This document shows, piece by piece, positions 1 through 33,636 of a DNA stretch of 64,000 nt. Within the stretch, counting starts at the first letter, position 1; the number at the start of each line of letters is the position of its first letter. Source of the stretch: Pseudomonadota bacterium (GTDB lineage Bacteria; Pseudomonadota; Alphaproteobacteria; Caulobacterales; Parvularculaceae). The stretch covers positions 5,140 to 69,139 of the forward strand of contig JBCCTV010000001.1 of assembly GCA_039197915.1 (NCBI GenBank), written 5' to 3'. Below the pieces are notes generated by a model. It saw nothing but the letters and a program-made list of their open reading frames with translations, did no database searches and had not been told where the DNA came from. A program made the translations under genes and the position numbers.

Positions 1-772
1 CATAGGCCACCCGATCCTCACCGACAATCACCGCATGGGCGTTTGGACGCAGCCTCTGTAGGTCAGCAAAGGCCGCCATAAACTGCGGGAACCCGCGATA
101 GGGCTCCATCCCCCGCGCCACATAGGTCACAATCTCAGACCCTTCCGGCACGGAGACGTCCCCAACTTTCAAAGACGTCGGCCGGAACGGCAACGGATGA
201 TAATAGTCCGTATCAATACCATCATGGTGGGTTGTGAGCTTGTCCTGAAAACACCCTGGAAACTGCTGCTGCTGCCATGCGGTGGGGCAAACCCCCAACT
301 CGCATGAGGCGAGATCCATCAAAATGGGGGCGTTCTTCGACCGCGAACGCGCGCATATATCTGGCGACGGCGCACGATCGTCGAGATAGGACACATCGGG
401 CGCCGGCGTATTATAGTACCATTCGTAGTAGCCCACGGTTTTGGTCCGTGGCCAGACATCTTTCGCATACATGCCCGGCCCCCAGCCCGAATGGGCGACG
501 ACGAGGTCCGGCGAGAAGCCCGCATCGCGCAACTTAATCGCTGTCCGGGCAAAACCCTGGCCGGTCAAAACCGCGTTCTCCCATGTGGCCGAGTAGGGAT
601 GTACGCCTTCGGCGGGCTCGCGGTGCATTTCATAAGCCACAATCTTGTTTGAAAGGGCGGCCGCGTCTTTGCGCTTCGTTGCAAACATCACCTCCCAACC
701 AAGGCCATCGAGATAGGCCCCAAGGCGGCCAAACTGCGCTGGAAAATTATCATGTACAAAGAGGACCTTCAT
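1..772 (-). CDS. Glycosyltransferase, GT4-like (N-terminal ~257 aa; the 3' end runs off the window)
   Basis: Absent from the ORF track because the window edge truncates it. My own minus-strand translation from ATG (772-770) stays open to position 1: MKVLFVHDNFPAQFGRLGAYLDGLGWEVMFATKR...VVAHSGWGPGMYAKDVWP...VTYVARGMEPYRGFPQFM. This looks like the N-terminal Rossmann half of a GT-B/GT4 enzyme. A GGGAG RBS lies ~8 nt upstream. The start is 19 nt after the MotB-like stop, which looks like an operon. Confidence 0.7.
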   Translation of the reverse strand, partial: MKVLFVHDNFPAQFGRLGAYLDGLGWEVMFATKRKDAAALSNKIVAYEMHREPAEGVHPYSATWENAVLTGQGFARTAIKLRDAGFSPDLVVAHSGWGPGMYAKDVWPRTKTVGYYEWYYNTPAPDVSYLDDRAPSPDICARSRSKNAPILMDLASCELGVCPTAWQQQQFPGCFQDKLTTHHDGIDTDYYHPLPFRPTSLKVGDVSVPEGSEIVTYVARGMEPYRGFPQFMAAFADLQRLRPNAHAVIVGEDRVAY

Positions 773-791: not shown

Positions 792-1376
792 CTAATTGGT
801 GAAGAATTCCACCTGGTCGATAAACTGTTTGGCCGGCGCTTCTTTAACGAAGATCGCGATATCGCTCGCCGCGAAGCCAGCGTCCATTAAGGACTTACGC
901 GCTTGCAACAATCGATAATAGGCGATGCGCTGCTTTTTTGTGTATGCGGATGATTTTCCATCGAAATAGGACGTTATAACGATTTCTTTACCAACCAATT
1001 TATCGCGATTGTCGTCAAAGTAGCCAGCGACCTCGCCCAACGCTCCCTCATCGATCGTGGTTGCGTCAGCCTTAAAAGTAAGGACCAGGCGGTCATCTGC
1101 GGCTTTTACCGCCTCAACACCGGTCTTGACCTCTTTTGTCTCGGGCGCATCGACTGTTACTTCGCGGGTTTGAATTGTCGTCGTTGATTTTTCCGTAGGC
1201 GTATTTTCAACGACAATTTTGACAATGTTTAGTGACATCGCAAAAATAGCGATCGCAAGAATGATCAACAAAAACGTCACAACCATGACGATCGTCGACA
1301 ACGCGTCGACGAAGCCCGGCCAATGGTTTTCTTCTTGTTGTTGCGCTTTCGCCACGACGCTCGCTTCAACACCCAT
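792..1376 (-). CDS. MotB/SiiA-like single-pass membrane protein (stator B-subunit-like) with a degenerate OmpA-like C-terminal half
   Basis: 194 aa. The N-terminus HWPGFVD24ALSTIVMVVTFLLIILAIAIF resembles the MotB plug/TM signature (E. coli ..YAD32FMTAMMAFFLV..), with the Asp conserved at the TM entry. The C-terminal segment (VITSYFDGKSSAYTKKQRIAYYRLLQARKSLMDAGFAASDIAIFVKEA) resembles an OmpA/MotB C-terminal fold. Confidence 0.6.
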   Translation of the reverse strand: MGVEASVVAKAQQQEENHWPGFVDALSTIVMVVTFLLIILAIAIFAMSLNIVKIVVENTPTEKSTTTIQTREVTVDAPETKEVKTGVEAVKAADDRLVLTFKADATTIDEGALGEVAGYFDDNRDKLVGKEIVITSYFDGKSSAYTKKQRIAYYRLLQARKSLMDAGFAASDIAIFVKEAPAKQFIDQVEFFTN

Positions 1377-1551
1377 ATGCCGGACGCGCCGGCGCTTAAC
1401 TGATCGTGGTTAATTGCCGTTGAGAGCGTTGCGATTTCGTAAACCCAGACTTTGGCGTCAGCCTTGGCGCAGAGTTTGGCCGACAATAAAAAATTAAGGT
1501 TATCGACCCACGTTCAGCTGCTTATTGGCGACGATTTAGGGCAGCGGCTCG

Positions 1552-2988
1552 ATGGGCAGCGTACGCACTCAGTTTAATCGGATCTTGTTTTCGCTCGGCG
1601 TTCTCATAGCGCTGAGCATTTGGCAGTGGGGCTTCGTCCTAAACGCCGTTAGCTCAAACCCGGCGCTGAACGGCCTGATCTTCGGCACATTTTTCTTCGG
1701 GTTTTATCTCGTTTTCTCCGGCGCGATGACCATTCGCAACGAGTACCGCTCGTTTAACGCGCTACAAGAAATGCTGGCCGATGTGCGGGGCGAGCAACAA
1801 ACCCGCGAGCTTGACCCCTATTGGCGCTATCGGCGGTGTAACGACATTGGGATCGTTTTTAAGCGCCCGAATATTCTGGGGCAGGCCTATCAGCTCATCT
1901 CCGACAGGCTGCGCCAGGAAAAAGACCTCTCGATCACCGCTTCAACCATGCAGACGCTGGTCGACGGCATTGACGAGCGGGTTCAGGAAATCCGCTCGCT
2001 CATATCCTATGTGGCGGGCATCCTCGTTCTATTGGGCCTTATCGGTACGTTCCTTGGCCTGATGATTACGCTTGCTTCCGTTGGCGACATTTTGGGGAGC
2101 CTCGACCTTACGGGCGGCGACCCGACGGAAACGGTCTCTGGCTTGATGGAAAGTTTGCAGGTGCCGCTTGGCGGCATGGCGACAGGCTTCTCGTCATCAT
2201 TGTTTGGTCTTGTGACGTCGTTAGCGCTCAGCCTGCAACAACAGCTTTTATCGCGCGCCTTCAGTACACTGAAATCGGATTTCTCAAACTGGCTCTCCGA
2301 TGCGGTTGAATTGCACGAGGGGGAAGTGGGCCTCAGCGGATATGGCGGCGTCGCCGTCTCAACTGGGGACGGCTCCAACGAAGGCGGCGCGGTCCACCAC
2401 GCCCCGCAAGTTACCTTAATGATGGAGGAGCGCCGTCTCGCTTTGTTGATGAAAACGGCCCGGCATATTTTGGTTGCAAACCGCCACCAGGGCCGGTCGC
2501 TTCGCCAGGTCACCAAAGGCTTAGAGGCCCTCGCGCTTGAAACGGCGGAAGTGACCGGCGCAATGCGCGAAGCGACCGACCGGCTGCAGGCGCTCAGCGA
2601 TCAAAACGAAGTCGTCCACAAAGCAATTGCACGGTCTACTGAAGCCCTCGCCGCTGTTGCCCAGGCCCAAACGGAACGGAAGGAAATCGCGGAGCTTACA
2701 GCGCTCCTCTCAACCCGTTTCCAAGAGCGCGACGCCCGCGTTTTAACGGGGATGCGCCAGATCTACCGGCGCGTTGGCGAGATCGCTGCGGACCGCGCGC
2801 GCGAACAGGATGCTCAAGATACGGAGCATGAGAGATTGCAAGAAGCGCTTGGCGAAGAGATTACCGATCTGAACATCAACGAATTACGCAACGCGGCTGA
2901 AGAAATGCGCCTCCCGCCGAAGGCCGCGCGCCGCGCGACTAGCGCTGAGGGCGATCCGAGGCCAGCAGCGCAAGCCAAGGGGCGCTGA
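1552..2988 (+). CDS. MotA/ExbB/TolQ-family proton-channel protein (SiiB/stator A-subunit-like) with a long C-terminal coiled-coil tail
   Basis: 478 aa. Four hydrophobic helices at residues ~11-30, 40-61, 151-176 and 208-230. The last two carry the family motifs LLGLIGTFLGL and ATGFSSSLFGL. Residues ~300-478 are Ala/Glu/Arg/Leu-rich and heptad-like. Transcribed divergently from the MotB-like gene across a 175-bp AT-richer spacer. Confidence 0.65.
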   Translation: MGSVRTQFNRILFSLGVLIALSIWQWGFVLNAVSSNPALNGLIFGTFFFGFYLVFSGAMTIRNEYRSFNALQEMLADVRGEQQTRELDPYWRYRRCNDIGIVFKRPNILGQAYQLISDRLRQEKDLSITASTMQTLVDGIDERVQEIRSLISYVAGILVLLGLIGTFLGLMITLASVGDILGSLDLTGGDPTETVSGLMESLQVPLGGMATGFSSSLFGLVTSLALSLQQQLLSRAFSTLKSDFSNWLSDAVELHEGEVGLSGYGGVAVSTGDGSNEGGAVHHAPQVTLMMEERRLALLMKTARHILVANRHQGRSLRQVTKGLEALALETAEVTGAMREATDRLQALSDQNEVVHKAIARSTEALAAVAQAQTERKEIAELTALLSTRFQERDARVLTGMRQIYRRVGEIAADRAREQDAQDTEHERLQEALGEEITDLNINELRNAAEEMRLPPKAARRATSAEGDPRPAAQAKGR

Positions 2989-2989
2989 T

Positions 2990-3472
2990 ATGATGAAACG
3001 TTTCGCAACGCGCATGCAGCAAGCCCTAGCGCCAGCGCGTAAACTTTCAAGCTACCGCCGTCGGCGCACGGACCTTGAGGCGCGCACGGTGCAGCGCCAG
3101 CGCAAAGCCCTCGTCCGGGATGAAAAACGCAACCAACACAAACGCGCCGAACAGCGCGTGGACATCTTTGCGCTCGCAGAGATCGCCCTGCCGGATCGCA
3201 ATTTCTCCCTCGACGGCGTTATAATCGACGCCTCCCCTGGAGGACTTTCCTTCCGGCCGTCGACGCAATTCATTGAAGACCTGACCGGCGAGCCAGTAAA
3301 ACTCCTGATCGAAGGCGTCGCCAAAAATGGCGTCATCCGCGCCACCCGTCCCAATGGGTATGGCGTTCAACTGACGCGCGGCTTCTCCACCGGCGAACTC
3401 GCATTGCTCAGAGATTTATCCGTAGACGTTGAAGACGAACGCACGGCGAAAGCGGCGTTGCTGGCCGAGTAG
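2990..3472 (+). CDS. PilZ-domain protein (predicted c-di-GMP receptor)
   Basis: 160 aa. Contains RAEQR (residues 52-56), 23 intervening residues, then DASPGG (80-85). This matches the canonical PilZ RxxxR...(D/N)xSxxG c-di-GMP site (nt 3143-3244). The ATG lies 1 nt after the MotA-like TGA (..TGAtATGATG..), suggesting translational coupling. Confidence 0.7.
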   Translation: MMKRFATRMQQALAPARKLSSYRRRRTDLEARTVQRQRKALVRDEKRNQHKRAEQRVDIFALAEIALPDRNFSLDGVIIDASPGGLSFRPSTQFIEDLTGEPVKLLIEGVAKNGVIRATRPNGYGVQLTRGFSTGELALLRDLSVDVEDERTAKAALLAE

Positions 3473-3643
3473 CGCTCGAGAGCCATTGCGTCGGACGCAT
3501 TTTCTTAAAACGAAAAATCGATCCCCCCAAAAAACGCGCACCTGCGACGGCGTGGTTTTCGGGGAGGCATAACGCTCTTCCAACATCCGTTTGAGCGCCC
3601 CGCAGCACTTACGAGGCGCCCATATTTGAATGAGCCCCAAGCT

Positions 3644-6600
3644 TTAAGCGACGGCGACCGTCAGTTCAGCGATCGTTGTGCTAAAGCCGTCTTCGAACGT
3701 ATAAAGCATGGACGACATATCGCCCGACGATGTCGCGGCGCCGACCACATTCACTTCGCTCACATCATCGACGAGCACCGTCAACGCGTTCCCTGAGTCC
3801 GTAACCGATTGCACGTCGGTTACATCCAACGTGAAGTCGGCTGTCAGGTTAGGTCCGCGCACGTCGATAATCTCAATGTCGGTCAAGATATCGAAGAGAC
3901 CGAGGTCGCTGACAATGCTTGGCGTTGGGCTTTCAAGGTCAACCGTGTCCGTATCAGCGCCGCCGTTGATTTGCGCGTTGGTGAGGTCAATCAGTCCAGT
4001 GTCAATGATGAACCGGTCATCGCCGCCTTCGCCAAGGGCGATATCGGCGCCGCCATTGGTGTCAATGATGTCGTCATTTGCTCCGCCCTCGAACCGGTTA
4101 GCGTCGCCGTCGCCCACAAGGGTGTCGTTGCCGTCGCCGCCCCGGAGCGTGTCGCCGCCTACGGCTGTGAGGCTATCATTGCCGCCAAGGCCCTCTAACA
4201 GGTTCGCATTGCCGTCCCCCGTTAGCGTGTCGCCGGCGGTGTTGGAGCCGATTACATTCTCAAAGCCTGCAATCGTGTCGCCAGCCGCATCGCCGCCGCT
4301 CGCGCTGTTCGTGCCAAGATTAATAGTCACACCGCCCGTCGAGGCCGCGTAGTCGAGCGTGTCAATCTCGCCGCCCCCGTCAAGGTCGTCAGCATCAGCG
4401 CCGCCGCGCACCGTGTCATTGCCCCCTTCGCCCCGAAGCGTGTCCCCGCCGGAACCGCCCTCAAGAACGTCAGCGCCCCCGCCGCCTGCCAAGCTGTTCG
4501 CAAGGCCAGACCCCGTCAGCGTGTCATTCCCAGAACCGCCTAGCGCGTTCTCAATCGCAATCAGCGTATCCCCAAGCGAGGACGTCTCGCCGCCAAGATC
4601 AATATCAACCCCTGAGCCAACGCTCGAGTAATCAACCGTGTCAATCTGGCCGCCGCCATCAAGCGAATCACCGCCGCCAGCGTCAGCGACAAGCGTGTCA
4701 GCCCCAAGGCCGCCAATGAGCGTATCAACACCGCCGAGACCCGTCAGACGGTCGGCCCCGGAGCCGCCCTCAATCCGGTTATTGGCTGACGAGCCCACAA
4801 GCGTGTCGTTGCCCGTGCCAGAAACAATGTTCTCAATAGACGTCAGCGTATCCCCGAGGGACGTCACGCCCGTCCCAAGGTCAACATCAAGGTCCCCGCT
4901 CTCGCTGCCATAGTCGACCGTGTCGTCATTCGCCCCGCCGTCAAGAAGGTCCCCGTCAGCGCCGCCGCGAAGCGTGTCGTTACCGCCTTCGCCCCGAAGC
5001 GTGTCAGAGCCCGCATCCCCTTCAAGGATGTCCCCGTCAGCACCGCCAAGCAAACTATCAAGGCCGCCGCCGCCAACAAGACTGTCCGCGCCCCCGCCCC
5101 CTTCGAGCGTGTTCGCATTGCCGTCCCCCGTTAGCGTGTCGGCAAAGTTCGACCCCCGGAGGTTTTCAATTTCGTTGAACGTGTCGCCGCTCGCATGGCC
5201 GACGGTTCCGCCGCCTGCAGCCAGGCTAGCATCGACAGGGCCCGTGGCGTTCTCGTAACTCGCCCAATCAATACCGCCGCCGCCATCGAGCGTATCGGCG
5301 TCGTCTCCGCCGACTAACGTATCCGCGCCTTCACCGCCGAAAAGCGCTTGGGCCGTCGGTGTACCGAAGATTAAATCATCGGCATCGCCGCCGATGACCG
5401 TGTCGACGCCAGAGAGCACATCGCCTTGCGCATGGCCGCCGGATGACGCGGTTCCGTCGAGGCGGATGACGAGATTGACCCCGGTTGGAGAGCCTGAATA
5501 GTCGACGGTATCGTCGCCCGTTCCGCCCTCAATTGTGTCAGCGCCTGCTGACGCGTTGATGAGGTCGTTGCCGCCGCCCGCATTAATGTTGTTGCCGCCG
5601 GCGCTGCCGGTGATTGTGTCATTGGCGCTTGAGCCGATGACATTCTCGATGCTGACGAGTGAATCGTTGCCATCGGCCCCGGTCGCCGTTTGGGCGTCGA
5701 GGTCAATCGTTACCGCGCCGCTCGCGTTAGCGTAGCTTGCCGTATCGAGCCCGCCCCCGCCGTCGATCGTATCCGCCCCGCCCCGGCCTTCGAGAACGTC
5801 CGCCGCCTCTCCGCCTTCGAGGATGTTTTCGTTATCATCACCGACGAGGGTGTCGAAGTTGTTTGATCCCCGGAGGTTTTCAACGCCGTTAAAGACGTCC
5901 CCCGCCGCGTCGCCTACGGTGCCGCCGCCCGCAAAGAGCGAGGCGACAACGCTTCCGCCTGCGGATGAATAATCCGCCGTGTCGTTACCGCCGCCGCCGA
6001 TCAAACTGTCAGCGCCGGCGCCGCCGACGAGAACGTCATCTAAAGCGCCGCCGTCCAGCGTCTGTGCGCCGCCAATACCGATGAGGCTGTCGTTAAAGTT
6101 CGAACCGGTCAGTCTTTCGATGCCGCTGACAATATCGCCCTGGGCATGGCCGCCAGATGAAGCGGTCCCGTCGAGGCGAACCGTGACGCCGTCATTTGAT
6201 CCGACATAGGTTAGGCTGTCGATCTCGGTTCCGCCGTCAATCGTATCGGCGCCAACGGAGCTTGTGAACGCATCGGCGCCGCCGCGGCCCTCAAGTCTGT
6301 TATTTTCAGTATTACCGGCAAGGGTATCGTTCTGGGCCGTACCGATAATCGCCTCGATGCTGACAAGTGTGTCGTTTGTTGCGTCGCCGCCGGTTGCGGT
6401 GTTCGCGCCGAGGTCCACATTGATTGCTGACCCTGAACCCGAATAATCAACCGTATCGAGACCACTGCCGCCATCAATATCATCGCCATCAGCGCCGCCG
6501 CTGATCAAGTCATCATCATCGCCGCCGCGCAAGGTGTTGGCCCCGGCGCCGCCAATAATCGTGTCCATGCCACGACCGCCATCGATGTCATCCGCATCGG

Positions 6601-9600
6601 CGCCGCCGTCGATGTTGTCATCTTCATCGCCGCCGGTGATCGTGTCGCTGCCGATGCCGCCGGTTATAAGGTCAGCCCCCTGACCACCGGCAATATTGTC
6701 GGCGCCGGCGCCCCCTTCGATCGTATCGGCGTCGCGGCCGCCGTCTAGGTTATCGTCGCCGTCGCCGCCGATCAGCGTGTCAAACCCGTCAAATCCGCGC
6801 AGGGTGTTTTCTAGGGTGTCGCCAACGAGGTTGTCATTGAAATCAGAACCGTCGATGCCTTCGATGCCAAAGAAACGGTCGCCCGCAGCATCACCGCCGG
6901 CGCCGGTCGCGCCTTCGGATAGGGTAATAGAAACGCCGCTGCCGCTCGATTGGAAGTCGACGATGTCGTCGCCCGCGCCGCCTCGATATTCGTCAGCGTT
7001 GGCGCCCGCGCCGCCGTCGAGAATATCATCGCCGTCGCCGCCCTCGAGCGTGTTGGAGGCGGTCGAGCCGCGCAGGGTATCGCCAAGGGTCGAGCCGATC
7101 AGGTTTTCAATACCGGATAAATCATCGCCCGCCGCCGTACCAAAGCGCTCAATATTGCCGGCGATGTCGATCTCAACGCCAGCGCCTGAGTCGCTGTAAT
7201 CCGCCGTATCAATACCCGCGCCGCCGACCAAGACATCGCTGCCGGCGCCGCCTTGCAGGGTGTCGTCGCCATCGCGGCCTTCAAGGCGATTATTCGCCCC
7301 ATTGCCGGTGATGTTATCGCCTAGCGATGTTCCGTATACCCGCTCAATACCGCGCAGGGTGTCCGTATCAACGCCGCTGACGCCAGTTTCTGCAACGAGG
7401 TCCACAATGACCGCAAGCGACAGCGATCCGTAGTCGATATCGTCAAAGGAGCCTGTCCCGCCGTCGATGAAATCGCTGCCGAGGTCGCCTTGGAAATCGT
7501 CGTTGTTGGCGCCGCCGATGAGGCTGTCGTCGCCTTCACCGCCGAAGATGTCGTCGTCGCCGGACCCGCCTAGGATCGTGTCATTCCCCTCGTCGCCAAA
7601 GAGTTGGTCATTTGAGTTGCCGCCGTCGATGCTGTCATTGTCAGCGCCGCCACGAATGATGTCCAAGCCCTCGCCGCCGATAATCTCGTCGTCGCCAGCA
7701 TCCCCTTGCAGGGAGTCATTATCGGCGCCGCCGTTAATCGTGTCATTGCCCTCGCCGCCGATGACCGTGTCATTTTCGTCACCAGCGGAAATGTCATCGT
7801 CACCTTCACCGCCGTCAATGGTGTCGCTGCCTTCGCCGCTGGTGATGATATCGTTATCGAGACCGCCTTCGATCAAGTCGTTGTTCCGGTCACCAACAAT
7901 CGTATCGTCGCCAGCGTCGCCGAAGAGTTGGTTCAGGCCTTCGCCGCCGATAATTGAGTCGTTGCCGGTATTGCCGCGGATCGTGTCATTGCCTTGCCCG
8001 CCGGTCAGCGTGTTTTCGCCGACCGTCCCTAGGAGCGAGTCAGAGCCCGATGAGCCGACAGCGCTCTCGATACTGACGAGCGTGTCGCCCTCGGCTTCGC
8101 CGCCGAGGCCAAATTCATTCTGTAGATCGACCGTTACGCCAACGCCTGAGTTGGAGTAGGTGACAACATCATCGCCAATACCGCCGTCGATGGAATCAGC
8201 GCCGCCAAAGCCGCGGAAGATGTCGTCGCCATCGCCGCCAATGAGCGTTTCAACACCGCCGGTGCCGGACAGTTGGTCGCTTTCGTCTGAACCAATGAGC
8301 ACTTCAATGTCGAACAGGCGGTCGCCGGCGGCGAACCCGCCAGAGCCCGTTGTCCCATTGAGGAAGGCGATCACGCCAGTGGTTGAATTACTATAATCGA
8401 CCGTATCGGTATCTTCGCCTCCTTCAAGGCGCTCTGTCCCGATGTTGCCGAAGAGCGTGTCATCGCCGTCTTGGCCGAAGAGGCTGTCATTGCCCTCGCC
8501 GCCATCGATGACGTCTGCGCCTTCGCCGCCGAAAATGCGGTTTGCGGCGGTATTGCCATCTAGCGTGTCGTCATTATCGGACCCACGCAGATCCTCGATA
8601 CTGGAATAGGTGTCGCCTAAGGCTTCGCCGGTGTTCAGGGCGGCGTTTGCGAGGTTCACAACAAGTCCGGGTCCGGCGTTTTGGTAATCGGCCATATCGC
8701 GACCCGCGCCGCCCTCAAGGGTGTCGGCCTCACCGCCGCCCTCAAGGGTGTCGTTTCCGCCGCCGCCTGTGAGCACATTCGCCAGCGCATCGCCGACGAT
8801 CGTGTCTGCCGCTTCGGAACCGATCACGTTTTCAACGTCGATAATCGTATCGTCAGCGGCGTCGCCGGCGAAGCCGCGTTCTTGGCTAAGGTCGACGCTG
8901 ACGCCAATGGTCAGCCCACTGTAGTCGACAACGTCAATATCATCGCCGCCATCGAGCGTGTCGCCATTGGCGCCGCCGATCAGCGTGTCATTGCCAAGGC
9001 CGCCTTCTAGCGAATTCTCAAAGCCGTCGCCAACAAGTCGGTCAGCGCCAGAGCCGCCGATAATACCTTCTATATTCGTATAGGTATCGCCTTCCGCAGC
9101 GCCGCCGGTGCCGACGCCGCCGAGCGTTGCGGTAATATCGACGGTCTCGGCCGAATAATCGACGATGTCGAAATTATCGCCGCCGTCGAGGGAATCTGCG
9201 CCCGTCCCGGTGAAGAATATATCGGCGCCGAGGCCGCCGAGGAGCGTGTCAACGCCTGCGCCGCCATCGAGCGTATCATTGCCGGCGCCGCCGTCGAGGC
9301 TGTCATTGTCACCGGCGCCGAGGAGGCTGTCATTGTCATCCCCGCCGAGGAGCGTGTCCGCGCCAGCCGCCCCTGTGAGCGTGTCATTGCCGGCCATACC
9401 CCGCAGTTCGTTGCCGGCCGCCGAGGTCGTTAGGCTATCGTCGAAACCTGAGCCTTCGAGAATTTCAATATCCGTAAACGTATCACCGGCAGCGTCGTCA
9501 TTGGCGCCGACAGCGCCAACAGCGAGAGACGCCGTAACGCCTGAACCCGCCGTGCGGTAGGTCGCAACGTCAATGCCTTCACCGCCGTCAAGGGCGTCGG

Positions 9601-12600
9601 CGCCGCCGGCGCCCTCGAGGGTATCAGCGCCGTCGCCGCCGTCGATTGAATTGACGTTGTCGTCGCCGGTTAGATCGTCGCCGTTCGATGAGCCGATCAA
9701 ATTTTGAATGTCGATGAGAACGTCGCCCGTGGCGTCGTTGCCGAAATGAACGCCCGTGTCGAGGTTCACCGAGACCGCGCCCGATCCCTCATAGGACGCT
9801 GTGTTGGAACCCGCGCCGCCGCGCAAAGTGTCCGCGTCCGCCCCGCCGCGCAGGACATCGTCGTCCTGGCCGCCCGATAAGTCATTACGCGCGCCATTGC
9901 CGACAATCGTGTCCGCGCCTTCGCCGCCAATAACAAATTCGATATTCGTCAGTATGTCGCCGGCCGCCTCCGCACCCGCATTATTGGCGTTATTCGATAG
10001 ATCGATGACAAGATCCGCAGTCGAATTAGCGTAATCGGCGACGTCGTTTAGCGTGCCGCCGCCATCAAGTGTGTCCGCGCCTAAACCGCCGCGCAGGGTG
10101 TCGATACCCGCGCCGCCTTCAAGGAGGTCAGCGACGGTCCCGCCGGTTAGAATGTCGCCGCCGCCTTCGCCGCGAAGCGTGCTGCCGGTATTGGCTGCGA
10201 TGAGCGTATCGCCGGTGTTTGAGCCCTCGAGGATTTCAATGCTATCGAGGAAATCGCCCTCGGCGTCGCCGCCGAGGCCGGCGCCCGTTTCAAGGTTGAT
10301 GTTTACCGCGCCTGCCGAGCCCGTATACCGGGCGGTGTCGATGCCGCTGTCGCCTTCAAGGCTGTCCGCACCCGCACCACCGATGAGGAGGTCATTGTCG
10401 CCGCCCCCTTGTAATCGGTTGATATTGCCGTCGCCGATGAGCGTGTCAGTGGAGCCGGATCCGATGATGTTCTCGATGAGCTCCAGTCGATCGCCAGCCG
10501 CGTCGCCGCCGGCGCCAAAATTTCCGATCGTGAGCTGAACGTTTACGCCCGCAGCTGAGTTCGAGTAATCGGCCGTATCAATACCGTCGCCGCCGACCAG
10601 GGTGTCGGCGCCTTCGCCGCCTTCGAGAAGGTCGTTTGACGCCGACCCGTCGAGCCGGTTGGCGAGGCTGTCGCCGATGAGCGTATCGTTATTGTTGCCG
10701 CCGATGAGGTTTTCGATGCTCGTTAGCGTGTCGTCGGCTGCGTCGCCGCCGGTGGCGACGCCGGTCGCCAAGTTGACCGAGACGGCGGCGGCCGCACCTT
10801 CGTAACTCGCCGTATCAAGGCCATCGCCGCCATCGAGACTATCGCCTGCGGAGCCCCCGATCAGCGTATCAGCGTTAGCGCCGCCTTCTAGCGTATCGGA
10901 GCCAATGCCGCCGCTTAGAATATCGTCGCCGCCACGTCCGAGTAAAACGTTCGTACCCGCATTTGCTGAGAGCGTATCATTGCTTTCAGAGCCGGCAGCA
11001 TTCTCAATATCCGTATAAACATCGTTCTGGGCGTCGCCGCCAATGCCACCGCCCGTAAGGTCGACATTCACGGCTGCCGACAGGGCGTAATCAACCCAGT
11101 CGTCGCCACCGCCGCCATTCAGCGTATCAGCGCCCGCCCCGCCAATGAGGGTGTCGTTTTCGTCACCACCCGCAAGGCTGTTGTCGAGACTATCGCCAGT
11201 GAGTTGGTCCGCGAAATCGGAGCCAATTAGGTTTTCGATCTCGGTCAGGACGTCCCCATCGGCGTGGCCGCCGCTCGCCGTATTGCCGCCGAGATTGATT
11301 GTTACAGCGTCGTCAGAGGCCGCATAGGTCGCCGTATCCGTACCCGAATTACCGAACAATGTGTCAGCACCCTCGCCGCCGGCGAGGAGGTCGGCGCCGG
11401 CCGATCCGTCAAGGCTATTATCGAGGCTGTCGCCAGTGAGCGTGTCGTTGCCTCCGGACCCGATGATGTTCTCGATTTGCGTTAGAACATCGCCCTGGGC
11501 GTCGCCAAACGCGTTTTGGAGGTTATCGGAAAGGTCCACGCGTACAGCGCCCGATGCGGTGTAATCGGCCGTATCAATGCCGCCGCCGCCGTCGATAATG
11601 TCGCCATCGGCACCGCCGCGCAGGACGTCGTTGTCGCCGCCGCCGGAAATCTGATCGACGCCTTCAAAACCAAAGATCGTGTCTGCGCCGCCGCCGCCGG
11701 ACAAAATGTTCGCTTCAAGATTACCCCGGATCGCGTCGTTAAAGCCGGAGCCGAGGACATTTTCGATATCGGTCAGCGTATCCTGGGCGCCGCCGTCGTC
11801 GATCGCGCGCCCGGTATCGAGGAAAACGGAAACGGCGCCGCCAGCGGATTCATAGCTGACAAAGTCGTTGTCGCCGCCGCCGTCTAAAATGTCCGCGCCG
11901 GCTTCCCCAACGAGCGTATCATTGCCGCCTTCGCCGAAGATCGTATCGTTGCCAGCGCCGCCAACGAGGCTGTCGTCTCCGTCGCCGCCCCGTAATTCAT
12001 TACCAAGACTATTACCAATCAGCGTGTCGTTGCCAGTGGTTGCAATGACCTCTTCGATTGAAATGAGAACGTCGCCATCTGCGTCGCCGCCGGACACCAC
12101 ACCGGTGCCCAGATTGACGCTAACGGGATCAGCCGAAGCCGAGTAGTCGACAATGTCAAAGCCTTCGCCGCCATCGAGCGTGTCGGCCCCGCTGCCGCCG
12201 GCCAGCGTATCAGCGCCGGCGCCCGCGCGAATTTCGTCATCGCCCCCAAGCCCGGTGAGGACGTCCCCGCCGCCGAGACCACGAATGACGTTCGCTTCGC
12301 CGTCACCCGTTATCTGATCATTTTGTTCCGAACCCGTGACATTCTCAATCTCGGTTAACGTGTCGCCTAGGGCGTCGCCATTTGTGCCGAGCCCGGAGAG
12401 AAGGCTCAAAACAACGCCGGAGGTCGATCCGCTATAGTCGGCCAAGTCAATATTGCCGCCGCCGTCGAGGCTGTCAGCGCCGGCGCCGCCAATCAGCGTA
12501 TCAGCGCCGAGATCGCCAAAGAGCTCGTTGGCGCCGCCGTCGCCGGCTAACAGGTCGTCGCCGTCTGAGCCCAGAACATTTTGAATGTTTGTAAGCGTAT

Positions 12601-15600
12601 CGCCTTGGGCGTCGCCGCCGAGCCCGGTTCCAAGCGCCAGATCGATCTGAATGCCGTCGGCGCCGCCCGTGTAAACGGCCGTGTTGACGCCGCCGCCGCC
12701 ATTGAGACTATCAGCGCCGGCGCCGCCTTCGAGCGTGTCTTCACCAGCATTGCCAAGAAGCGTATCGCCGCCTTCGCGACCGATCAGTTGGTCAGCGCCG
12801 CCGCCGCCTTCGAGGGTATTGCTAAGGGAGTCGCCCGCAATCGTATCGTTCTCACCGGACCCAATTACACGCTCAATACCGGCGAGCGTGTCGCCGTCGG
12901 CATCGCCAAACGTGCCCGTGCCCGCAGCGAGGTCGATGTCGACTGCGGTAGAGCCGGCATAACTCGCCGTGTCATCGCCCTCGCCGCCGTCAATGCTGTC
13001 TTGTCCCTCGCCGCCAAAGATCAGGTCCGCACCCTCCTGTCCAAGGAGGGTGTCGTTGCCGCCTTCGCCGCGTAGCTCGTCGGCGTTATCGCCGCCTTCG
13101 AGACGGTTCGCGCCCGATTGCCCGCGCAAGGTATCCGCGCCATCACCGCCAATGATATTCTCAATACTAACAAGGGAGTCGTTGCCGATATCGGCGCCGC
13201 TCGCCGCATTAGAAGCGAGGTTTGCGGTTACAGCCGCTGTCGAGGCGCTGTAATCGGCCGTATCGGCCTCGCCGCCGCCATCAAGGGTGTCGTTGCCGTC
13301 AAGACCGCTCAAGGTGTCAGCGCCGCCCGCCCCTTCGAGGCGGTTATCCAAGCTGTCGCCAGTTAGGGTGTCGGAAAGCCCCGAACCCAGAAGGTTTTCA
13401 ATGCCCGTCAGCGTATCGCCGTCGGCGTCGCCGCCGCTTGCGGTGTTGGCGTCCAAATTGACGTTTACGCCGGCCGTGGAGCCCACATATTCAGCCGTGT
13501 CAACACCGGCGTCGCCAATCAGGCTGTCGCCGCCTTCGCCGCCCCGCAAAGTATCGCCGTCCGCGCCGCCATCGAGCGTATCGGCCCCACCGCCGCCGCG
13601 CAGTTGATCAACCCCGCCAGCGCCGATGAGGATATTATCACGCGTATTGCCGATCAGCAGGTCAGCAGCTTCCGTACCCGTCACATTTTCAATGTCGATC
13701 AGCGTGTCGCCCTGGGCGTCGCCTCCGGCGCCAGTGCCGTCCACCAGGTTAACCGTAACGCCGCCGACCGAGCCGGTATAATCAGCTGTGTCGACGCCCT
13801 CGCCGCCGTCTAGCGTGTCGGCCGCCCCAAGGCCGCGCAGGATGTCGTCGCCACCGCGGCCTTCCAATCGGTTCTGTGCTGACGATCCGACAAGCGTGTC
13901 GTTTCCAGCGCCGCCAAAGGCGCCTTCAATGCTTGTGAGCGTGTCGCCGGCGGCATCGCCGCCGCTGGCGGTTCCAGCGCCTAGGTCAATGTTCACCGCG
14001 GTTGAAGCGCTATAGTCGGCAATGTCAAAATCGCCACCTTGCCCGTCGAGACTGTCAGCGCCGGCGCGACCGGCGAGGGTGTCGTTGCCTTCGCCGCCGA
14101 TGAGCGTGTTGCCGAGGCTGTCGCCGCTCAGGCTGTCGCCAAAGCCCGAACCAATGACTTGCTCAACGCCTTCAATCGTATCGCCTTGGGCGTCATTTGA
14201 GGCGCCAGTCCCAGCCGCCAAATCGATCTGTACAGCGCCGAATGATGCGGAATAATCAATCGCATCGATGCCGCCGCCGCCGACAAGGCTGTCCGCGCCG
14301 GAGCCGCCAATCAGGAGGTCGTTGTCGCCGCCACCGTCGAGCGTGTCATTTTCATCGCCGCCGTCGAGCGTGTCCTGGCCGGCATTGCCGGTGAGCGCGT
14401 TGCGCTGGGCGTCGCCGGTAAGTTCATCATTAAAGCCGGAGCCAATGAGATTTTCAATTTCGTCAAGGTCGTCGCCGGCGGCGTGACCGAAGGCCGCCGT
14501 GTCATTCTCGAGATCAATCACCACACGGTCATTTGACGCCGCATAGCTCGCCGTATCGCTGCCCTCGCCGCCGATGATTTGGTCAGCGCCGGCGCCGCCG
14601 ACGATAAAGTCTTCGCCGTCGCCGGCTTCAATTCGGTTGACGAGGCTGTCGCCCGTGAGCGTGTCGTCGAGACCGGACCCGATGATGTTCTCAAACCCAT
14701 CGATCACGTCGCCGGCGGCGTCGCCGCCCGAGGCGATATTGTTCGCGAGGTCGACATTAACCCCAGCGTTTGAGCTGGCGTAGGAAATTGTGTCGGTATC
14801 AGCGCCGCCGATCAGCGTATCAGCGCCTTGGCCGCCTTCGATGGTGTCAGCGCCGCCTTCCCCATCGATGGAGTCCGCCCCGCCAGCGCCCAAAATGATG
14901 TCGCTGCCGCCGCCGCCGAAGATATCGTTCGCCGTATCGGACCCCTCGAGCGTGTCGCCCGCGGCCGACCCTGTGAGGTTCTCAAAGTTTGTGAGCGTAT
15001 CGCCGGTTGCGTCGCCGCCGCTCGCAGCGCCGGTTCGCAAGCTGACGTTTACGCCCTGGGACGATTGGGCGTAAGTGACGGTGTCTTCTTCGCCGCCGCC
15101 GTCGAGCAAGTCGCCGCCGCTGCCGCCTTCGATCGTATCATTATCGCCGCCGCCGAGGAGAACGTCAGCGCCGCCGCCGCCGGAAAGAGCATCCGCACCT
15201 TGACCGCCTTCAAACCGGTTCGCAAGCGAATCGCCGGTAATCGTGTCGGCGTTAGCGCTACCGAGTATGTTCTCTATACTGATTAGCGTATCGTCAGCGG
15301 CGAGGCCGCCAGCCGCCGTATTCAATTCGAGGTCGATACTGACACCGGCCCCCGATAGGCGATAATCCGCGGTGTCGACGCCCGAGCTCCCGTCGAGACG
15401 GTCAGCGCCGCCGCCGCCGTCGAAAATATCATCGGAGCCCAGCCCTTCGAGCACATTGTCGTCGGCATCGCCGATCAACGTGTCCGCGCCCGCAGAACCA
15501 CGCAGATTTTCAAACCCGGAGATAATGTCGCCGGAGGCATCGCCGCCCGAGACAGCGCCGGTCGCCAAATTGACAGACACAGCACTTGCAGACCCTTGGT

Positions 15601-18600
15601 AGGAAAGCGTGTCGCTCTCGCTGCCGCCATCGAGCGTGTCTGCGCCAGCCCCGCCTTCAATGGTGTCCGCGCCGCCGGCGCCTTGGATGTTGTTGACGAA
15701 ATTGTCGCCGACTAAGCTGTCGCCATTGCCGGAGCCAATGATATTCTCAATACTGATGAACTGGTCGCCATCAGCGTCGCCGTCAAACCCAGCGCCGCTT
15801 GAGAGGAACACACGGACGGCGCTTGATCCGGTGTAATCGACCGTATCAATACCAATGTCGCCGTCCAAACGGTCAGCGCCAGCGCCCCCGATCAAGGTAT
15901 CCGCGCCTTCGCCGCCTTCCAGCGTATCAACGCCGGCGTCGCCGATGAGGCTGTCTGCGCCGCCGTCGCCGGTCAGAAGGTCGGCGCCGTCGTTGCCGCG
16001 CAAGGTGTCCGCCGATGCGCCGCCGATGAGCGTGTTGTTGGTGTCGTCGCCGGTGAGGGTGTCGCTAAAGGCCGACCCGATCACGCCTTCAATGTTGGCG
16101 AGCGTATCGTTATCGGCGTGGCCGCCAGACCAGGTTGATAAGAGCAGGTTGATGTCGACCCCGGCGTTGCTGCTTTCATAGCTCGCCAGGTCATCGCCGC
16201 CTTCGCCGTCAATATTGTCGCCGCCGGCGCCGCCCTCGAGGACGTCATTTTCGCCGCCGCCGGTGAGCACATCCCCATTGGCGCCGCCGCGCAGGGTGTC
16301 GGCCCCGCCGCCGCCGGCAAGATTATTCGCCTCAAGATTACCAACGACGCTATCAGCGCCGCCAGAACCGATGACGTTTTCGATTTCTGAATAGGTGTCG
16401 CCCGCAGCGTCGCCGCCCAAACCAACGCCGGTGCTCAGATTAACTGATACCGCGCCGCCGGACGCTCCGTAGTCTGCTGTATCAACGCCGCCCCCGCCGG
16501 AGAGGAAGTCAGCGCCAGCGAGGCCCGCAAGAATGTCGTTATCGCCGCCGCCTGCAAGGGTATTGCTTTCATCGTCACCGGTCAGCGTGTCTGCGTTTGC
16601 AGAGCCGGTCAGGTTTTCGATGCTACTAAAAGTGTCGCCGGCAGCCGAGCCAAACTGCGCCACATTCGTTGTCAGGTTCACATTCACGCCGACGCTGCTG
16701 TCGGCGTAACTGGCCGTATCCTGACCACCGCCGCCGATCAATTCGTCGCCGTCAGCGCCGCCCTGGAGAATGTCGTTCTGGGAGCCGCCGTCGAGGGTGT
16801 CCGCCCCCCCGCCGCCGATCAAGGTATCAACGCCCGCAAGGCCGGTTAGGATATTCGCGTCGCCATCGCCCGTTAGCACATCTTCTTGCAGCGAGCCTTC
16901 GATGTTTTCGATTTCGATCAGGACATCGCCGTCGGCGTCGCCGCCGCTCGTAAAGCCAGGGCCGCTGATATCAACCGTGACGCCGCCGCCGGAATTCCGG
17001 TAGGTGACCGTGTCATTGTCCGCACCACCGTCAATCGTATCCGCGCCAGCCCCGCCTTCGATCAGGTCCGCCCCTTGGCCGCCGCTCAAATTGTTCAGGG
17101 AAATGGTGCCGATCAGCGTATCATTGCCGTCCGACCCAATCGCGTTCTCTATGCTGACATATTCGTCGCCCTCGGCGAAGCCGCCAAGGCCGAAGCCGTT
17201 TTGCAAATCAACAAAGACCGCCGCGCCCGAACCGCTATAATCAACCGTGTCAAAGGCAGAACCGCCATCGAGGCTGTCGGCGCCCAGGCTGCCGACCAAT
17301 GTATCGGATCCCGCTTCGCCAAATATCGTGTCATTGCCGCCAGCGCCGTCGAGGCTGTCGTTACCGCCGCGCCCTTGGAGCACGTTTTCTTCCGAATCGC
17401 CGATGATCGTATCGTTGAAGTTTGACCCGATCGCGTTCTCGATATTGGAAAATGTATCGCCAGTGGCGTGACCGCCTGTCGCCGCATCGTTTTCAATATC
17501 GACAGAGACGGCCGCGTCGGACGTTTCATAGCTGACCGTATCAATGCCGCCGCCGCCATCGGTAACGTCTGCGCCTTCGCCGCCGATAAGCGTGTCTGCG
17601 TTTTCACCGCCGAGAAGCGTGTCATCTTCAGCGCCGCCCGACAATAAATCAGCGCCGTCGTTCCCTGTGAGGACGTTTTGCTCAGAATCGCCAATCAGCG
17701 TATCGCTTGAGTTTGAGCCCTGAACATTTTCAATTGAATCAAACGTATCAAATTGCGCATCGCCGCCGACGCCGACGCGTGCCTGCAAATTGACATTTAC
17801 GCCGACCCCGGAGCTTCGATAATCAACGAGGTCGACGCCGTCGCCGCCCACCAGGCTGTCCGCCCCGCCGAGGCCAATGAGCGTGTCGTTACTGTCGCCG
17901 CCCGACAACGTATTGTTTTCATTGTCACCCGTCAGCGTGTCGCTAAAGTCTGAGCCGATGACGCCTTCGATGTCGATATATTCATCGAGCGCGGCCGCGC
18001 CAAACTGGCCAACAGAGTTTAGGAGATCGACGTTTACGCCGACGCCTGAGTCCGTGTAGCTCGCGATATCAATGCCGAGCGAGCCGTCCAGGGTGTCGGC
18101 GCCGAGCCCGCCGGTCAGCGTATTTTCGCCAAGCCCGCCGATGAGCGAGTCCGCGCCGCCGCGGCCAAAGATCAAATCGTCGCTGGCCCCGCCATCAATG
18201 CGGTTGCCAGTATTATCCCCATAGAGAGTATCCCGGAATGCTGACCCGGTGAGATTTTCAATGCTGTCTAAAGTATCGCCGTTGGCGTGGCCGCCTGTAT
18301 TTGTATTGTTCAGGAGGTCAATATTCACCGATGCGTTTGACCCGGCATAGCTCGCCGTATCAAGGCCGTCGCCGCCAACGATCGAATCGCCCGCTGCCCC
18401 GCCTTCAAGAATGTCCGCGCCGTCGCCACCGGTCAAAACATTGACGGCGCCGTTGCCGATCAACGTATCGCCAAGGGCTGAGCCCTCAACATTTTCGATC
18501 GAAATCAGGACGTCGTTTTGAGCGTCGCCGCCGAGCCCTGTCTCAGTCGCCAGGTTGACGTTCACGCCAACGAGGGAGCCTGTGTAATTGACCGTATCAG

Positions 18601-25162: not shown

Positions 25163-26497
25163 CTATTCGCGAAGCGCTTTCGCCTGCACTTCTCGAATGG
25201 GTTTTAACAGATAGGCAAGAATAGTTTGTTTTCCGGTAATAATATCTACTTCGGCGACCATTCCCGGTAATACCGGCTTGTCGTCCCCAAGGGAGGCGCT
25301 TTCGGCCTCAATCCTTACCCGGAAGTAAAGACGGCCGTCCTCGTCCTTCAGGGCGTCTGGCGATACCTCAACGATCTTGCCCGCAAGGCCGCCATGGGTA
25401 GCGTAATCATAGGCTGAGACTTTGACGACGGCGGGTAGGCCCGGCCAGACATTCGCGCGATCACGGGGCGAGAGTTTCGCCTCCACTTCAATCGATGCGT
25501 TGTCCGGAACAATCTCAGCGATATTTTCGCCGGGCCGCACAACCCCGTTTATATTGTTAACGAAGAGTTTATTGATGACGCCGCTCGTCGGCGCCAACAC
25601 ATCAAAACGGGTGTTGCGGTCGCGCAGCGCTTCGATCGTTTCCTCGAGTTTTGAGATTTCGAACGCCACCTCTGTGAGCTCGCGCTCAGCGTCGGCGACA
25701 AACGCAAGCTCCGCCTCGCGACGACGGCCCTTCACTTCCTCCAGCGCCGCTTCGACTTGCGGAATTTGGAACTCCAAATCCGAAATCTGGGTCAGCACCT
25801 GCTGGAAACGGGTTTCATTTTCTAAAAGCTCGTTGCGCGATACAGCGCCCTCCTTGCTCAGCTTGCGCAAACTGCCGAGCCGTTCGGACATCAACGCCCG
25901 TTCCCGCTTTTTATTCTCAAGGCGCGATTTCCGTTCTGAGAGTTCAAAGTCTTTTTGGTTCACCTGGTCATCGACGATGCTTAACGCTTCGGTAAGTTCC
26001 GCCCGTCGACGTTCAAAAAAACGGGTCTGCTGCATCACTTCCGCCGGGAAACGCTGGGCGAGGGCGCCATCAAATTCCACAGTTTCAAGGCCATTCGCTT
26101 CTGCAAAAAGCCGACTGCGTTTGAGTTTTGCAGTGTTTAAATCGAGCGCTGCGGCTGCGAGCTCGGCTTGGGCGAAACTGTTTTCAATCCGTAAAAGGAC
26201 ATCCCCCTTCGCAACCTGCTCGCCTTCAGAAATCAAAATCTGGGTGATAATCCCGCCTTCAAAGTGCTGGACAAAATTGTTTTTCTCTTGCGAAACGATC
26301 CTTCCTGTGCCCCGGGTTACACGGTCTAGCTCCGCCGTCGCCGCCCAAATGAGCGCAACGCTCAGCGCACCGATGACAATTTGCAGAAAGCGCCGGCTCG
26401 CCCGCGCGATGATCACGTCAGAAGAGTCGCCTAGGAAATCCTCTTCTGCGGAAGGATCGTCGGTGGAATGCGTGTCGGAGGAGTGATCGTCAGACAT
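25163..26497 (-). CDS. HlyD-family type I secretion periplasmic adaptor (membrane fusion protein)
   Basis: The ORF extends to 26551, but ATG at 26497 (MSDDHSSD...) is the likelier start. It has one N-terminal TM helix (FLQIVIGALSVALIWAATA). This is followed by a lipoyl-like segment (KGDVLLRIENSFAQAELAAA), a long coiled coil and a C-terminal beta-barrel segment (VKVSAYDYATHGGLAGKIVEVSPD). Confidence 0.9.
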   Translation of the reverse strand: MSDDHSSDTHSTDDPSAEEDFLGDSSDVIIARASRRFLQIVIGALSVALIWAATAELDRVTRGTGRIVSQEKNNFVQHFEGGIITQILISEGEQVAKGDVLLRIENSFAQAELAAAALDLNTAKLKRSRLFAEANGLETVEFDGALAQRFPAEVMQQTRFFERRRAELTEALSIVDDQVNQKDFELSERKSRLENKKRERALMSERLGSLRKLSKEGAVSRNELLENETRFQQVLTQISDLEFQIPQVEAALEEVKGRRREAELAFVADAERELTEVAFEISKLEETIEALRDRNTRFDVLAPTSGVINKLFVNNINGVVRPGENIAEIVPDNASIEVEAKLSPRDRANVWPGLPAVVKVSAYDYATHGGLAGKIVEVSPDALKDEDGRLYFRVRIEAESASLGDDKPVLPGMVAEVDIITGKQTILAYLLKPIREVQAKALRE

Positions 26498-26796
26498 AAA
26501 AAACCCGCGGCGTTTGCCAATCAGCACGCATAGAAAAACGCCATTAACCAATCCTTACTCACTCGCTCCTTAAAGATCGGTGCAACGACCAATTCTTTTG
26601 AGTTCGGCACGCCGTGCGCAAGCCTTATGGGATTGCGTCAAACTTTAGGGAAACGCTCCGCGATAGGCGCGCATATTGGTTTTGGATCGGGTCTTGTTGT
26701 GCAACGGGCATTGACGACAGTGAAAGAAAATATCGGCGCTCGGTTGCAGCGCGCAAAGAGGCCGACGCAGACCGCAGGGGCGGGTCCTGAGACGGG

Positions 26797-26832
26797 GACC
26801 GTTTCAGGGCCTGGGACTGTTTCAGGGCCTGG
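26797..26832. repeat. Tandem direct repeat, 18 bp x 2 (gacYgtttcagggcctgg)
   Basis: Read directly: gaccgtttcagggcctgg / gactgtttcagggcctgg. Located in the divergent hlyD / ABC intergenic region. Confidence 0.9.
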
Positions 26833-26871
26833 GGCTGGGAGAGGATCCGGGACGAGATCTGGGCCACCGCC

Positions 26872-26919: not shown

Positions 26920-26959
26920 CTCTGCAACGCGTCAAAACGGATTTCCGTTGCCAGCGGCC

Positions 26960-31920: not shown

Positions 31921-31923
31921 TTT

Positions 31924-33606: not shown

Positions 33607-33636
33607 CGCCCGCTCGAGCCTTAAGAGGACAAGCAG

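Follow-up and report, generated by a model that had tools for sequence, protein, structure and literature searches.

The window analyzed here is a 64,000-nt stretch of an alphaproteobacterial genome (Parvularculaceae; assembly GCA_039197915.1, contig JBCCTV010000001.1, positions 5,140 to 69,139). Near its start lie three genes, which we call the trio: motB-like, for a MotB/SiiA-like protein (the B subunit); motA-like, for a MotA/ExbB/TolQ-type protein (the A subunit); and pilZ, for a stand-alone PilZ-domain protein. They stand beside the gene of a giant RTX protein and the genes of a type I secretion system (T1SS). Comparison with related loci suggests that the trio is an accessory motor of such secretion systems that may respond to cyclic di-GMP (c-di-GMP). 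The features of the locus are given below with strand, length in amino acids (aa) and basis of assignment (ORF, open reading frame; ABC, ATP-binding cassette).

792-1376 (-): MotB/SiiA-like B subunit, 194 aa (ORF list)
1377-1551: divergent intergenic region between motB-like and motA-like, 175 bp, presumed to hold the promoters of both units
1552-2988 (+): MotA/ExbB/TolQ-type A subunit, 478 aa (ORF list)
2990-3472 (+): stand-alone PilZ-domain protein, 160 aa (ORF list, Pfam PilZ)
3487-3499 (+): terminator-like hairpin with T-run, 15 nt past the pilZ stop (consensus scan, pattern match)
3644-22699 (-): giant RTX protein, 6351 aa, presumed T1SS substrate (ORF list, Pfam HemolysinCabind)
23169-25082 (-): TolC-family outer-membrane channel, 637 aa (Pfam OEP, TIGR01844)
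25163-26551 (-): HlyD-family T1SS periplasmic adaptor, 462 aa (TIGR01843, Pfam HlyD_3)
26627-29053 (+): T1SS ABC permease/ATPase, 808 aa, nearest to the LssB type (TIGR03375, Pfam)
2-772 (-): family-4 glycosyltransferase (GT4), truncated by the window edge (Pfam Glyco_trans_4_3, E=4e-54)

The pilZ start lies 1 nt past the TGA of motA-like (2986-2988). The pilZ and RTX genes converge, their stops 171 nt apart, and the hairpin at 3487-3499 probably ends the motA-like-pilZ transcript. Because a sigma-70 scan of 1377-1551 found no consensus match, the promoters of the motB-like and motA-like units are presumed, not observed, to lie there. A first-pass annotation of this DNA had described a 194-aa MotB-like protein with one transmembrane (TM) helix bearing WPGFVD, a 478-aa MotA-like protein with four TM helices, channel motifs and a long tail, a PilZ protein 1 nt past the MotA-like TGA with intact RxxxR and DxSxxG motifs, and a convergent 19-kb RTX gene ~170 bp away with the HlyD, TolC and ABC genes beyond it. 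All of these features were recovered. It had also reported no flagellar, Tol-Pal, TonB, LapD/LapG or GGDEF/EAL genes. Domain searches agree, finding no flagellar, Tol/TonB, LapD/LapG or GGDEF/EAL genes among window ORFs of at least 150 aa, and the GG[DE]EF motif is absent from all six frames of the window.

The A subunit has four TM segments (residues ~10-32, 39-60, 150-180 and 205-230), the last two of which carry the motifs LLGLIGTFLGL (159-169) and MATGFSSSLFGL (209-220). Across 83 homologs GLIGTF.GLM and GMA.GFSSSLFGL are invariant; these are the putative counterparts of the channel Thr positions of ExbB and TolQ. The AlphaFold2 model built with the 83 homologs has a predicted local distance difference test score (pLDDT) of 81 overall and above 90 over residues 1-250. 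After this core come a disordered stretch (257-285) and two long helices (287-371 and 376-453), which form the long tail. The top 50 Foldseek matches of the model in the PDB are all ExbB, TolQ, ZorA or PomA (probabilities 0.80-1.00; target TM-score, TMt, up to 0.58). By the positive-inside rule, the conserved loop 61-150 and the helical-hairpin tail 287-453 are predicted to be cytoplasmic. Precomputed Pfam MotA_ExbB (PF01618) matches are present on several A-subunit homologs. Among 1.84 billion proteins, the channel domain is found in 122 representatives of 50% identity clusters at E<=1e-30; the A-subunit family is modest in size but real.

In the family profile of the A subunit, the part that covers the tail (window 2410-2988) picks up the cytoplasmic hairpin of the methyl-accepting chemotaxis protein 2ch7 (E=7e-4) and, weakly, the tail of ZorA (8vvn_C, E=0.08). 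Both matches probably reflect coiled-coil composition; since coiled-coil matches to the tail overwhelmed the search with the MotA-like profile, we dropped them as evidence. The chemoreceptor match is a curious one in that Salmonella SiiAB binds the chemoreceptor CheM.

The B subunit begins with a short cytoplasmic stretch and a single TM helix; a disordered linker of ~30 aa then leads to a minimal OmpA-like domain (~87-194). Its sequence, ...ENHWPGFVD24ALSTIVMVVTFLLIIL..., places the Asp D24 within the N-terminal TM helix. WPGFVD is almost invariant in the family alignment (variant form WPGF[VI]D), and the TM Asp is present in 72/72 orthologous B-subunit ORFs. In the OmpA-like domain R150, R155 and R160 are invariant, and an R..YYRxxxxR motif occurs in 70 of the 72 ORFs. 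The B-subunit start may be a GTG at codon 8 (window 1355-1376, minus strand), because orthologs begin there (MAKAQ.../MA...); D24 would then become D17, with all numbering shifted by 7. No clear Shine-Dalgarno sequence precedes either candidate start.

The OmpA/MotB-like character of the C-terminal half of the B subunit is real and visible at the profile or structure level only. A single-sequence search of PDB chains with the MotB-like protein returned only noise. Pfam OmpA (PF00691) gave no match on the window protein and matched 13 of 26 family members. The family profile retrieved Campylobacter jejuni MotB (6ykp_F, E=2e-6) in an alignment spanning the TM helix and the C-terminal domain, and the N-terminal TM motif matched alphaproteobacterial PRK09039 'peptidoglycan-binding protein' models (1e-8). 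In the AlphaFold2 model (pLDDT 79; TM helix 90-98; linker 59-80, disordered) the C-terminal part folds into a compact beta/alpha domain. Its top Foldseek match in the PDB is the periplasmic, peptidoglycan-binding domain of Salmonella SiiA (SiiA-PD, 6qvp; E=4e-7, TMt 0.83, root-mean-square deviation 2.1 A, over the full 104-residue chain), which outranks MotB, OmpA, Pal and anchors of type VI secretion systems. The model has 90 PDB matches at E<=1e-3, every one an OmpA-like domain.

The PilZ protein has a basic N-terminal extension and carries R52AEQR56 and, after 23 residues, D80ASPGG85 (counted by hand), the two canonical c-di-GMP-binding motifs. It scores 23.9 bits against Pfam PilZ (PF07238; cut-off 22.5), and 27 of 37 orthologs match the same model at E<=0.01 (best 3.6e-8). 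PDB chain searches with the single sequence and with the PilZ profile gave no match. We consider it more likely than not that the window protein binds c-di-GMP. With a hidden Markov model of the PilZ orthologs, a PilZ-family ORF was found on the motA-like strand, no more than 150 nt further on, in 72/72 loci (those with at least 600 nt beyond motA-like). RxxxR is intact in 59 of 73 PilZ-family proteins, and [DNE]xSxxG in 53 of 73.

The T1SS genes are well supported by family models. TolC matches Pfam OEP (E=6.5e-45) and TIGR01844 type_I_sec_TolC (E=5.5e-51), and HlyD scores 366 bits against TIGR01843 (cut-off 209). The ABC protein matches Pfam ABC_membrane and ABC_tran and, at 547 bits (E=4.7e-164), falls under the 693-bit cut-off of TIGR03375. 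Its N-terminus reaches ~125 residues past the LssB-type model, and no family match covers its first 268 aa (26627-27430, plus strand); related ABC proteins are likewise long (~750 aa). TolC has an N-terminal extension of ~200 aa (24420-25082, minus strand) with a weak Lys/Pro-rich match. The RTX giant is built almost wholly of Ca-binding nonapeptide repeat blocks; its C-terminal part matches Pfam HemolysinCabind and RTX/serralysin-type NCBIfam models, and its N-terminal 400 aa match no known family in Pfam or NCBIfam. In the closest relative (L082) the convergent RTX gene lies at 12066-21452 (minus strand), with a product of at least 8978 aa by the deposited gene call versus 6351 aa in the window. 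Substrate size thus differs widely among close relatives.

To survey gene neighborhoods, one genome per species was scanned, giving 137 confirmed A-subunit homologs; 80 loci were kept, with flanks up to 10 kb, of which 51 formed a full-flank subset (at least 5 kb upstream and 1.5 kb downstream). The loci are nearly all alphaproteobacterial (Parvularculaceae, Devosiaceae/Maritalea, Cohaesibacter, Roseibium, Rhodobiaceae, Bosea, Beijerinckiaceae, Methylocystis, Geminicoccaceae and one Rhodobacterales metagenome-assembled genome, MAG). Two of the loci are labeled as a Glaciecola sp. MAG (L010, whose protein falls in the Parvularcula marina cluster) and a Hydrogenophaga intermedia MAG (L071); these are more probably mis-binned contigs than a sign of the module in Gamma- or Betaproteobacteria.

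The usual gene order is RTX, hlyD on the minus strand, and then ABC, motB-like, motA-like and pilZ on the plus strand. Median gaps are 64 nt from ABC to motB-like (55 loci), 108 nt from motB-like to motA-like and 6 nt from motA-like to pilZ. In the full-flank subset motB-like is present in 50/51 loci and ABC and/or HlyD within 10 kb in 44/51; in six of the other seven a giant RTX gene fills the flank, as in the window. RTX genes homologous to the window's occur in 43 loci. Four loci (L047, L050, L054 and L056) have the trio between ABC and TolC, and so inside the T1SS cluster, because TolC and an RTX gene come after pilZ. Unsupervised clustering of ORFs found only motB-like, ABC, PilZ, HlyD, RTX, GGDEF-EAL, TolC and GT4 families conserved around motA-like. 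Synteny had been set beforehand as a test of the T1SS association: T1SS or RTX genes flank the trio in 50/51 full-flank loci, and none of the 80 loci has flagellar, Tol or TonB neighbors. Independent gene calls with precomputed Pfam matches agree with the survey.

In one branch of the survey (Beijerinckiaceae/Bosea/Methylocystis), a membrane GGDEF-EAL gene lies directly downstream of the PilZ-like gene in ~18 loci:

L045, 8487-10133 (+): GGDEF-EAL gene after the PilZ-like gene
L052, 12254-14017 (+): GGDEF-EAL gene after the PilZ-like gene
L046, L053, L057, L060-L064, L068-L072, L077, L079, L080: the same arrangement

GGDEF and EAL motifs are intact in these proteins, except that no EAL motif was found in the L045 protein. 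All 14 PilZ-like proteins without RxxxR fall within this branch, and RxxxR and a GGDEF-EAL gene occur together in five loci (L068, L070, L071, L079 and L080). These neighbors link the module to c-di-GMP by a separate line of genomic evidence. In this branch, the enzyme may have taken over the c-di-GMP input from the PilZ protein or may add to it. In L059 a GGDEF-EAL gene (6421-9708, minus strand) sits between motB-like and motA-like.

These observations suggest the following mechanism. The A and B subunits would build a proton-driven inner-membrane motor of the MotAB/ExbBD type, with an expected 5:2 assembly; A/B pairs of this kind form 5:2 proton-driven motors (PMC12204202). The minimal OmpA-like domain of the B subunit would anchor the complex to peptidoglycan, by analogy with SiiA, in which R162 and R167 are needed for peptidoglycan binding (PMC12607715). 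R155 and R160 of the B subunit are spaced like these two residues, a comparison of spacing and not a residue-level superposition. By analogy with SiiAB, in which proton conduction depends on D13 (bioRxiv 10.1101/641415) and SiiB binds the ABC transporter SiiF (PMC12607715), the motor may couple the proton-motive force (PMF) to the ABC/HlyD/TolC conduit. The N-terminal extension of the ABC protein or of TolC could be its docking site. Coupling to the PMF would set the balance between release and surface retention of the RTX giant, or its rate of secretion. In Salmonella, SiiAB and the PMF favor surface retention of SiiE over release (PMC6272769), and CheM binds SiiAB and pushes SiiE towards retention (bioRxiv 10.1101/2021.05.14.443827).

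The PilZ protein, translationally coupled to the A subunit, would be cytoplasmic, as would the A-subunit helical tail. It would bind c-di-GMP via RxxxR and DxSxxG, dock on the tail or on the cytoplasmic loop of the A subunit, and switch the motor on or off, like YcgR-type PilZ proteins on flagellar stators. Binding of PilZ proteins to flagellar stators is established (PMC10140304, PMC11725899). We assign a probability of about 0.6 to the whole reading, that is, a PMF-coupled T1SS accessory motor gated by c-di-GMP-bound PilZ and acting on RTX release or retention. The part of it that makes the trio a functional part of the adjacent T1SS is very likely.

Several observations count against this reading, some for the window and some for the family. 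In the window, the trio and the T1SS genes are set apart by the 19-kb RTX gene and motB-like is divergent. This layout is found only in the nearest relatives (L001-L006, ~50% identity) and is therefore derived. The first-pass annotation was borne out on the association with a T1SS, and the arrangement of genes that it described proved atypical, the usual form being a single ABC-motB-motA-pilZ operon. In L052, which has full flanks, the order is motB-motA-pilZ-like-GGDEF/EAL with no T1SS gene within reach, and the same probably holds for L057, L061 and L062; the module can therefore occur on its own, away from a T1SS. The giant RTX-repeat substrate differs from the adhesin SiiE with its bacterial Ig-like (BIg) domains, and a LapA-type retention module or BapA-type prefix sought in the RTX N-terminus gave no family match.

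Other points concern the three proteins themselves. The profile checks proposed by the first-pass annotation came out unevenly: PilZ passed its Pfam cut-off, MotA_ExbB stayed under its own (21.1 bits vs 22.9, E=2.8e-4, TM3 region only) and OmpA was missed on the window protein, where the predicted OmpA/MotB-like half was recovered by the family profile and the structural model. Its comparison with SiiA held at the level of structure and failed at the level of sequence: neither the B-subunit sequence nor the family profile retrieved 6qvp from the PDB sequences at E<=10, in a set where SiiA is represented by its periplasmic domain only. Because the profile does not retrieve SiiA by sequence, the relationship between the B subunit and SiiA rests on fold, architecture and context. 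Finally, the c-di-GMP site that it had recognized is canonical in the window protein (DxSxxG) and is not so across the family, where motif 2 opens with Glu in 60 of 73 proteins and with Asp or Asn in 5 of 73, and RxxxR is lost in 14 of 73. Binding of c-di-GMP is therefore not universal in this PilZ family.

These site changes are the main support for the alternative that survives best, in which the trio belongs to the T1SS and the PilZ protein is a structural adaptor that stabilizes or localizes the motor without c-di-GMP, any control by c-di-GMP being exerted via other proteins. The gene is kept in 72/72 loci despite the changes, which implies that what is conserved is the PilZ protein and not its ligand site, and there is a precedent in FlgX, a tetrameric PilZ protein that partners the Campylobacter stator (PMC11725899). 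However, the window protein has both canonical motifs, and the orthologs that retain RxxxR include deep branches. Every locus without RxxxR belongs to the clade that gained the adjacent GGDEF-EAL gene, and the five loci with both an intact RxxxR and that gene tie the module to c-di-GMP. We regard the adaptor as unlikely, and as the most serious competitor of c-di-GMP gating.

The motor-PilZ unit could instead serve another envelope process, such as polysaccharide or glycan export, outer-membrane tethering or surface motility, with its place beside the T1SS reflecting co-regulation. The loci without T1SS genes (L052 and probably L057, L061 and L062) would fit, as would the GT4 gene. In the window this gene follows motB-like on the same strand, 19 nt downstream; in the window clade the two are probably co-transcribed, and it is uncertain whether GT4 is a member of the system. 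It is also a neighbor in L001-L006, lies between motB-like and motA-like in L036 (8557-9870, plus strand), and in L082 (703-9171) borders a sugar-modification cluster (GT2, epimerase, aminotransferase and GtrA). A link through glycosylation to the RTX protein or the envelope is possible. Yet GT4 is found in 7 loci only, in 55 loci motB-like lies just downstream of the T1SS ABC gene and on its strand, the trio is embedded between ABC and TolC in four, and the B subunit has its best structural match in SiiA. A role outside the T1SS is, in our judgment, improbable.

We rejected a Zorya-like anti-phage system, in which a long-tailed motor of the ZorAB type signals to an effector, on gene context and match coverage. 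PADLOC ZorA1/ZorA3 models do match A-subunit residues 147-238 (up to 7e-8; ZorB 0.012), NCBIfam ZorA models match at ~1e-3, and the long cytoplasmic helical tail and the presence of ZorA structures (8vvn and 8qyk) among the fold matches point the same way. But the PADLOC matches cover ~85 residues, the shared channel helices only, the NCBIfam score is 18 bits against cut-offs of 100-500, and ExbB and TolQ are at least as good as fold matches. No ZorC, ZorD, ZorE or nuclease/helicase-type effector is conserved nearby, where the neighbors are T1SS, RTX and PilZ genes, which makes this identity very improbable. Least credible of all is the idea of a spare flagellar stator braked by a YcgR-type protein, suggested by the MotA-like four-TM topology, the MotB-like Asp and a PilZ partner like YcgR, MotI and FlgZ: it was rejected, together with a Tol/Ton energizer, as such genes are absent from the window ORFs of at least 150 aa and from the conserved neighbors, and flagellar stators have neither the long helical tail nor the minimal peptidoglycan-binding domain of SiiA type.

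Elsewhere in the window, ORFs of at least 150 aa encode housekeeping, transport or regulatory functions. At 30973-37055 a LysR regulator gene and a gene pair for DabB-like (Proton_antipo_M) and DabA proteins point away from each other, with a gene for a PAPS-reductase domain next; the pair is probably an inorganic-carbon uptake system unrelated to the trio. At 40581-45050 (plus strand) the genes for a MacB-type ABC ATPase, an FtsX/MacB_PCD permease and a CrtC-like lipocalin (PF07143, PF17186) come in that order, an unusual set of three.

The preferred reading, a c-di-GMP-gated accessory motor of the T1SS, would extend a principle known from a single case. To our knowledge, no MotAB-type motor other than SiiAB has been described on a T1SS. 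A 2025 survey of 5:2 motors has it as the sole T1SS example (PMC12204202), and how SiiAB uses the PMF is still unknown (PMC12607715). We found no published account of a T1SS operon that includes a PilZ gene, or of SiiAB-like genes in Alphaproteobacteria, in a literature search that left most subscription journals outside. Our results suggest a SiiAB-type T1SS accessory motor with a fixed PilZ partner that is apparently undescribed. More broadly, and tentatively, since we place this somewhat below even odds, there may be a widespread alphaproteobacterial T1SS subtype with a rotary motor of its own, similar to SiiAB, that is gated by a dedicated PilZ receptor for c-di-GMP and joined in one clade by a GGDEF-EAL enzyme. 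Such a system would provide protease-independent control of giant RTX release versus retention, distinct from LapD/LapG.

If this is true, the SiiAB principle, so far known only from Salmonella pathogenicity island 4 (SPI-4), is general. The ~120 clusters, spread across many alphaproteobacterial families and including culturable strains (carriers such as Maritalea mobilis, Devosia rhodophyticola and Roseibium sp. TrichSKD4), offer comparative material for T1SS motors, and the fixed PilZ partner points to the cytoplasmic control surface of the motor. The reading also offers a testable direct link from c-di-GMP to T1SS output without LapD/LapG, and PilZ-controlled machines may extend past flagella, pili and polysaccharide synthases.

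One of the closest known systems is a distant alphaproteobacterial paralog found, for example, in Sinorhizobium meliloti, a 'MotA/TolQ/ExbB proton channel family protein' encoded with a PRK09039 'peptidoglycan-binding protein' and 34% identical over the channel helices. The pair differs in its A-then-B gene order and has neither a PilZ gene nor a T1SS. It lies at 6722-8859 of locus L081 (CP090106.1), beside a convergent ABC-domain gene, and appears to be a second alphaproteobacterial motor of the 5:2 type. A search of a plasmid collection returned only this distant S. meliloti/Shinella paralog, not linked to a T1SS.

Zorya ZorAB is likewise a 5:2-type motor with a long cytoplasmic helical A-subunit tail, and the PADLOC ZorA models are the best sequence-profile matches for the A-subunit channel helices. 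The trio differs in having no Zor effector genes, in its T1SS context and in its tail, which is shorter and predicted to be a helical hairpin. With YcgR, MotI, FlgZ, MotL and FlgX it shares the pairing of a small PilZ protein with a MotA-type subunit and, presumably, the logic that c-di-GMP acts on a 5:2 proton motor via its cytoplasmic face. Those proteins serve flagellar motors, many have a YcgR-N domain, and they are not translationally coupled to a stator gene; here the PilZ gene is part of a secretion operon.

LapD/LapG, which control LapA-type adhesins, and the proposed system would both let c-di-GMP decide between retention and release of a giant T1SS substrate, and in one clade here a GGDEF-EAL protein is encoded in the operon. 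However, among ORFs of at least 150 aa the window has no LapG protease, LapD or recognizable N-terminal retention module. The GGDEF-EAL proteins of related loci have intact catalytic motifs, whereas LapD is a degenerate receptor. In the proposed system the receptor would be PilZ and the effector a motor rather than a protease.

The closest likeness is to SiiA/SiiB of Salmonella SPI-4, which serve the SiiCDF T1SS and its giant adhesin SiiE: in both cases a MotB-like and MotA-like pair is encoded with a T1SS and a giant substrate. The sii gene order is siiA-siiB, so that B precedes A in both. SiiB has ~460 aa and the 478-aa A subunit is in the same size class; these two are compared by role and size. 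SiiA (210 aa; bioRxiv 10.1101/641415) and the B subunit have a common overall architecture of ~200 aa, in which a disordered linker joins a TM helix with its conserved Asp to a minimal OmpA-like domain, and the B subunit has two invariant Arg five residues apart, as do R162/R167 in SiiA (PMC12607715). SiiAB also takes input from a signaling protein, the chemoreceptor CheM (bioRxiv 10.1101/2021.05.14.443827). In contrast, the gene after that of the A subunit is here invariably a PilZ gene, which has no described counterpart in SPI-4; the secreted protein is a giant of RTX nonapeptides instead of a BIg-domain adhesin; the ABC transporter is nearest to the LssB type; and the hosts are free-living, mostly marine or soil Alphaproteobacteria. 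Because sequence homology to SiiA was not detected, we do not file the trio as a SiiAB ortholog; the likeness is one of fold, architecture, gene order and context.

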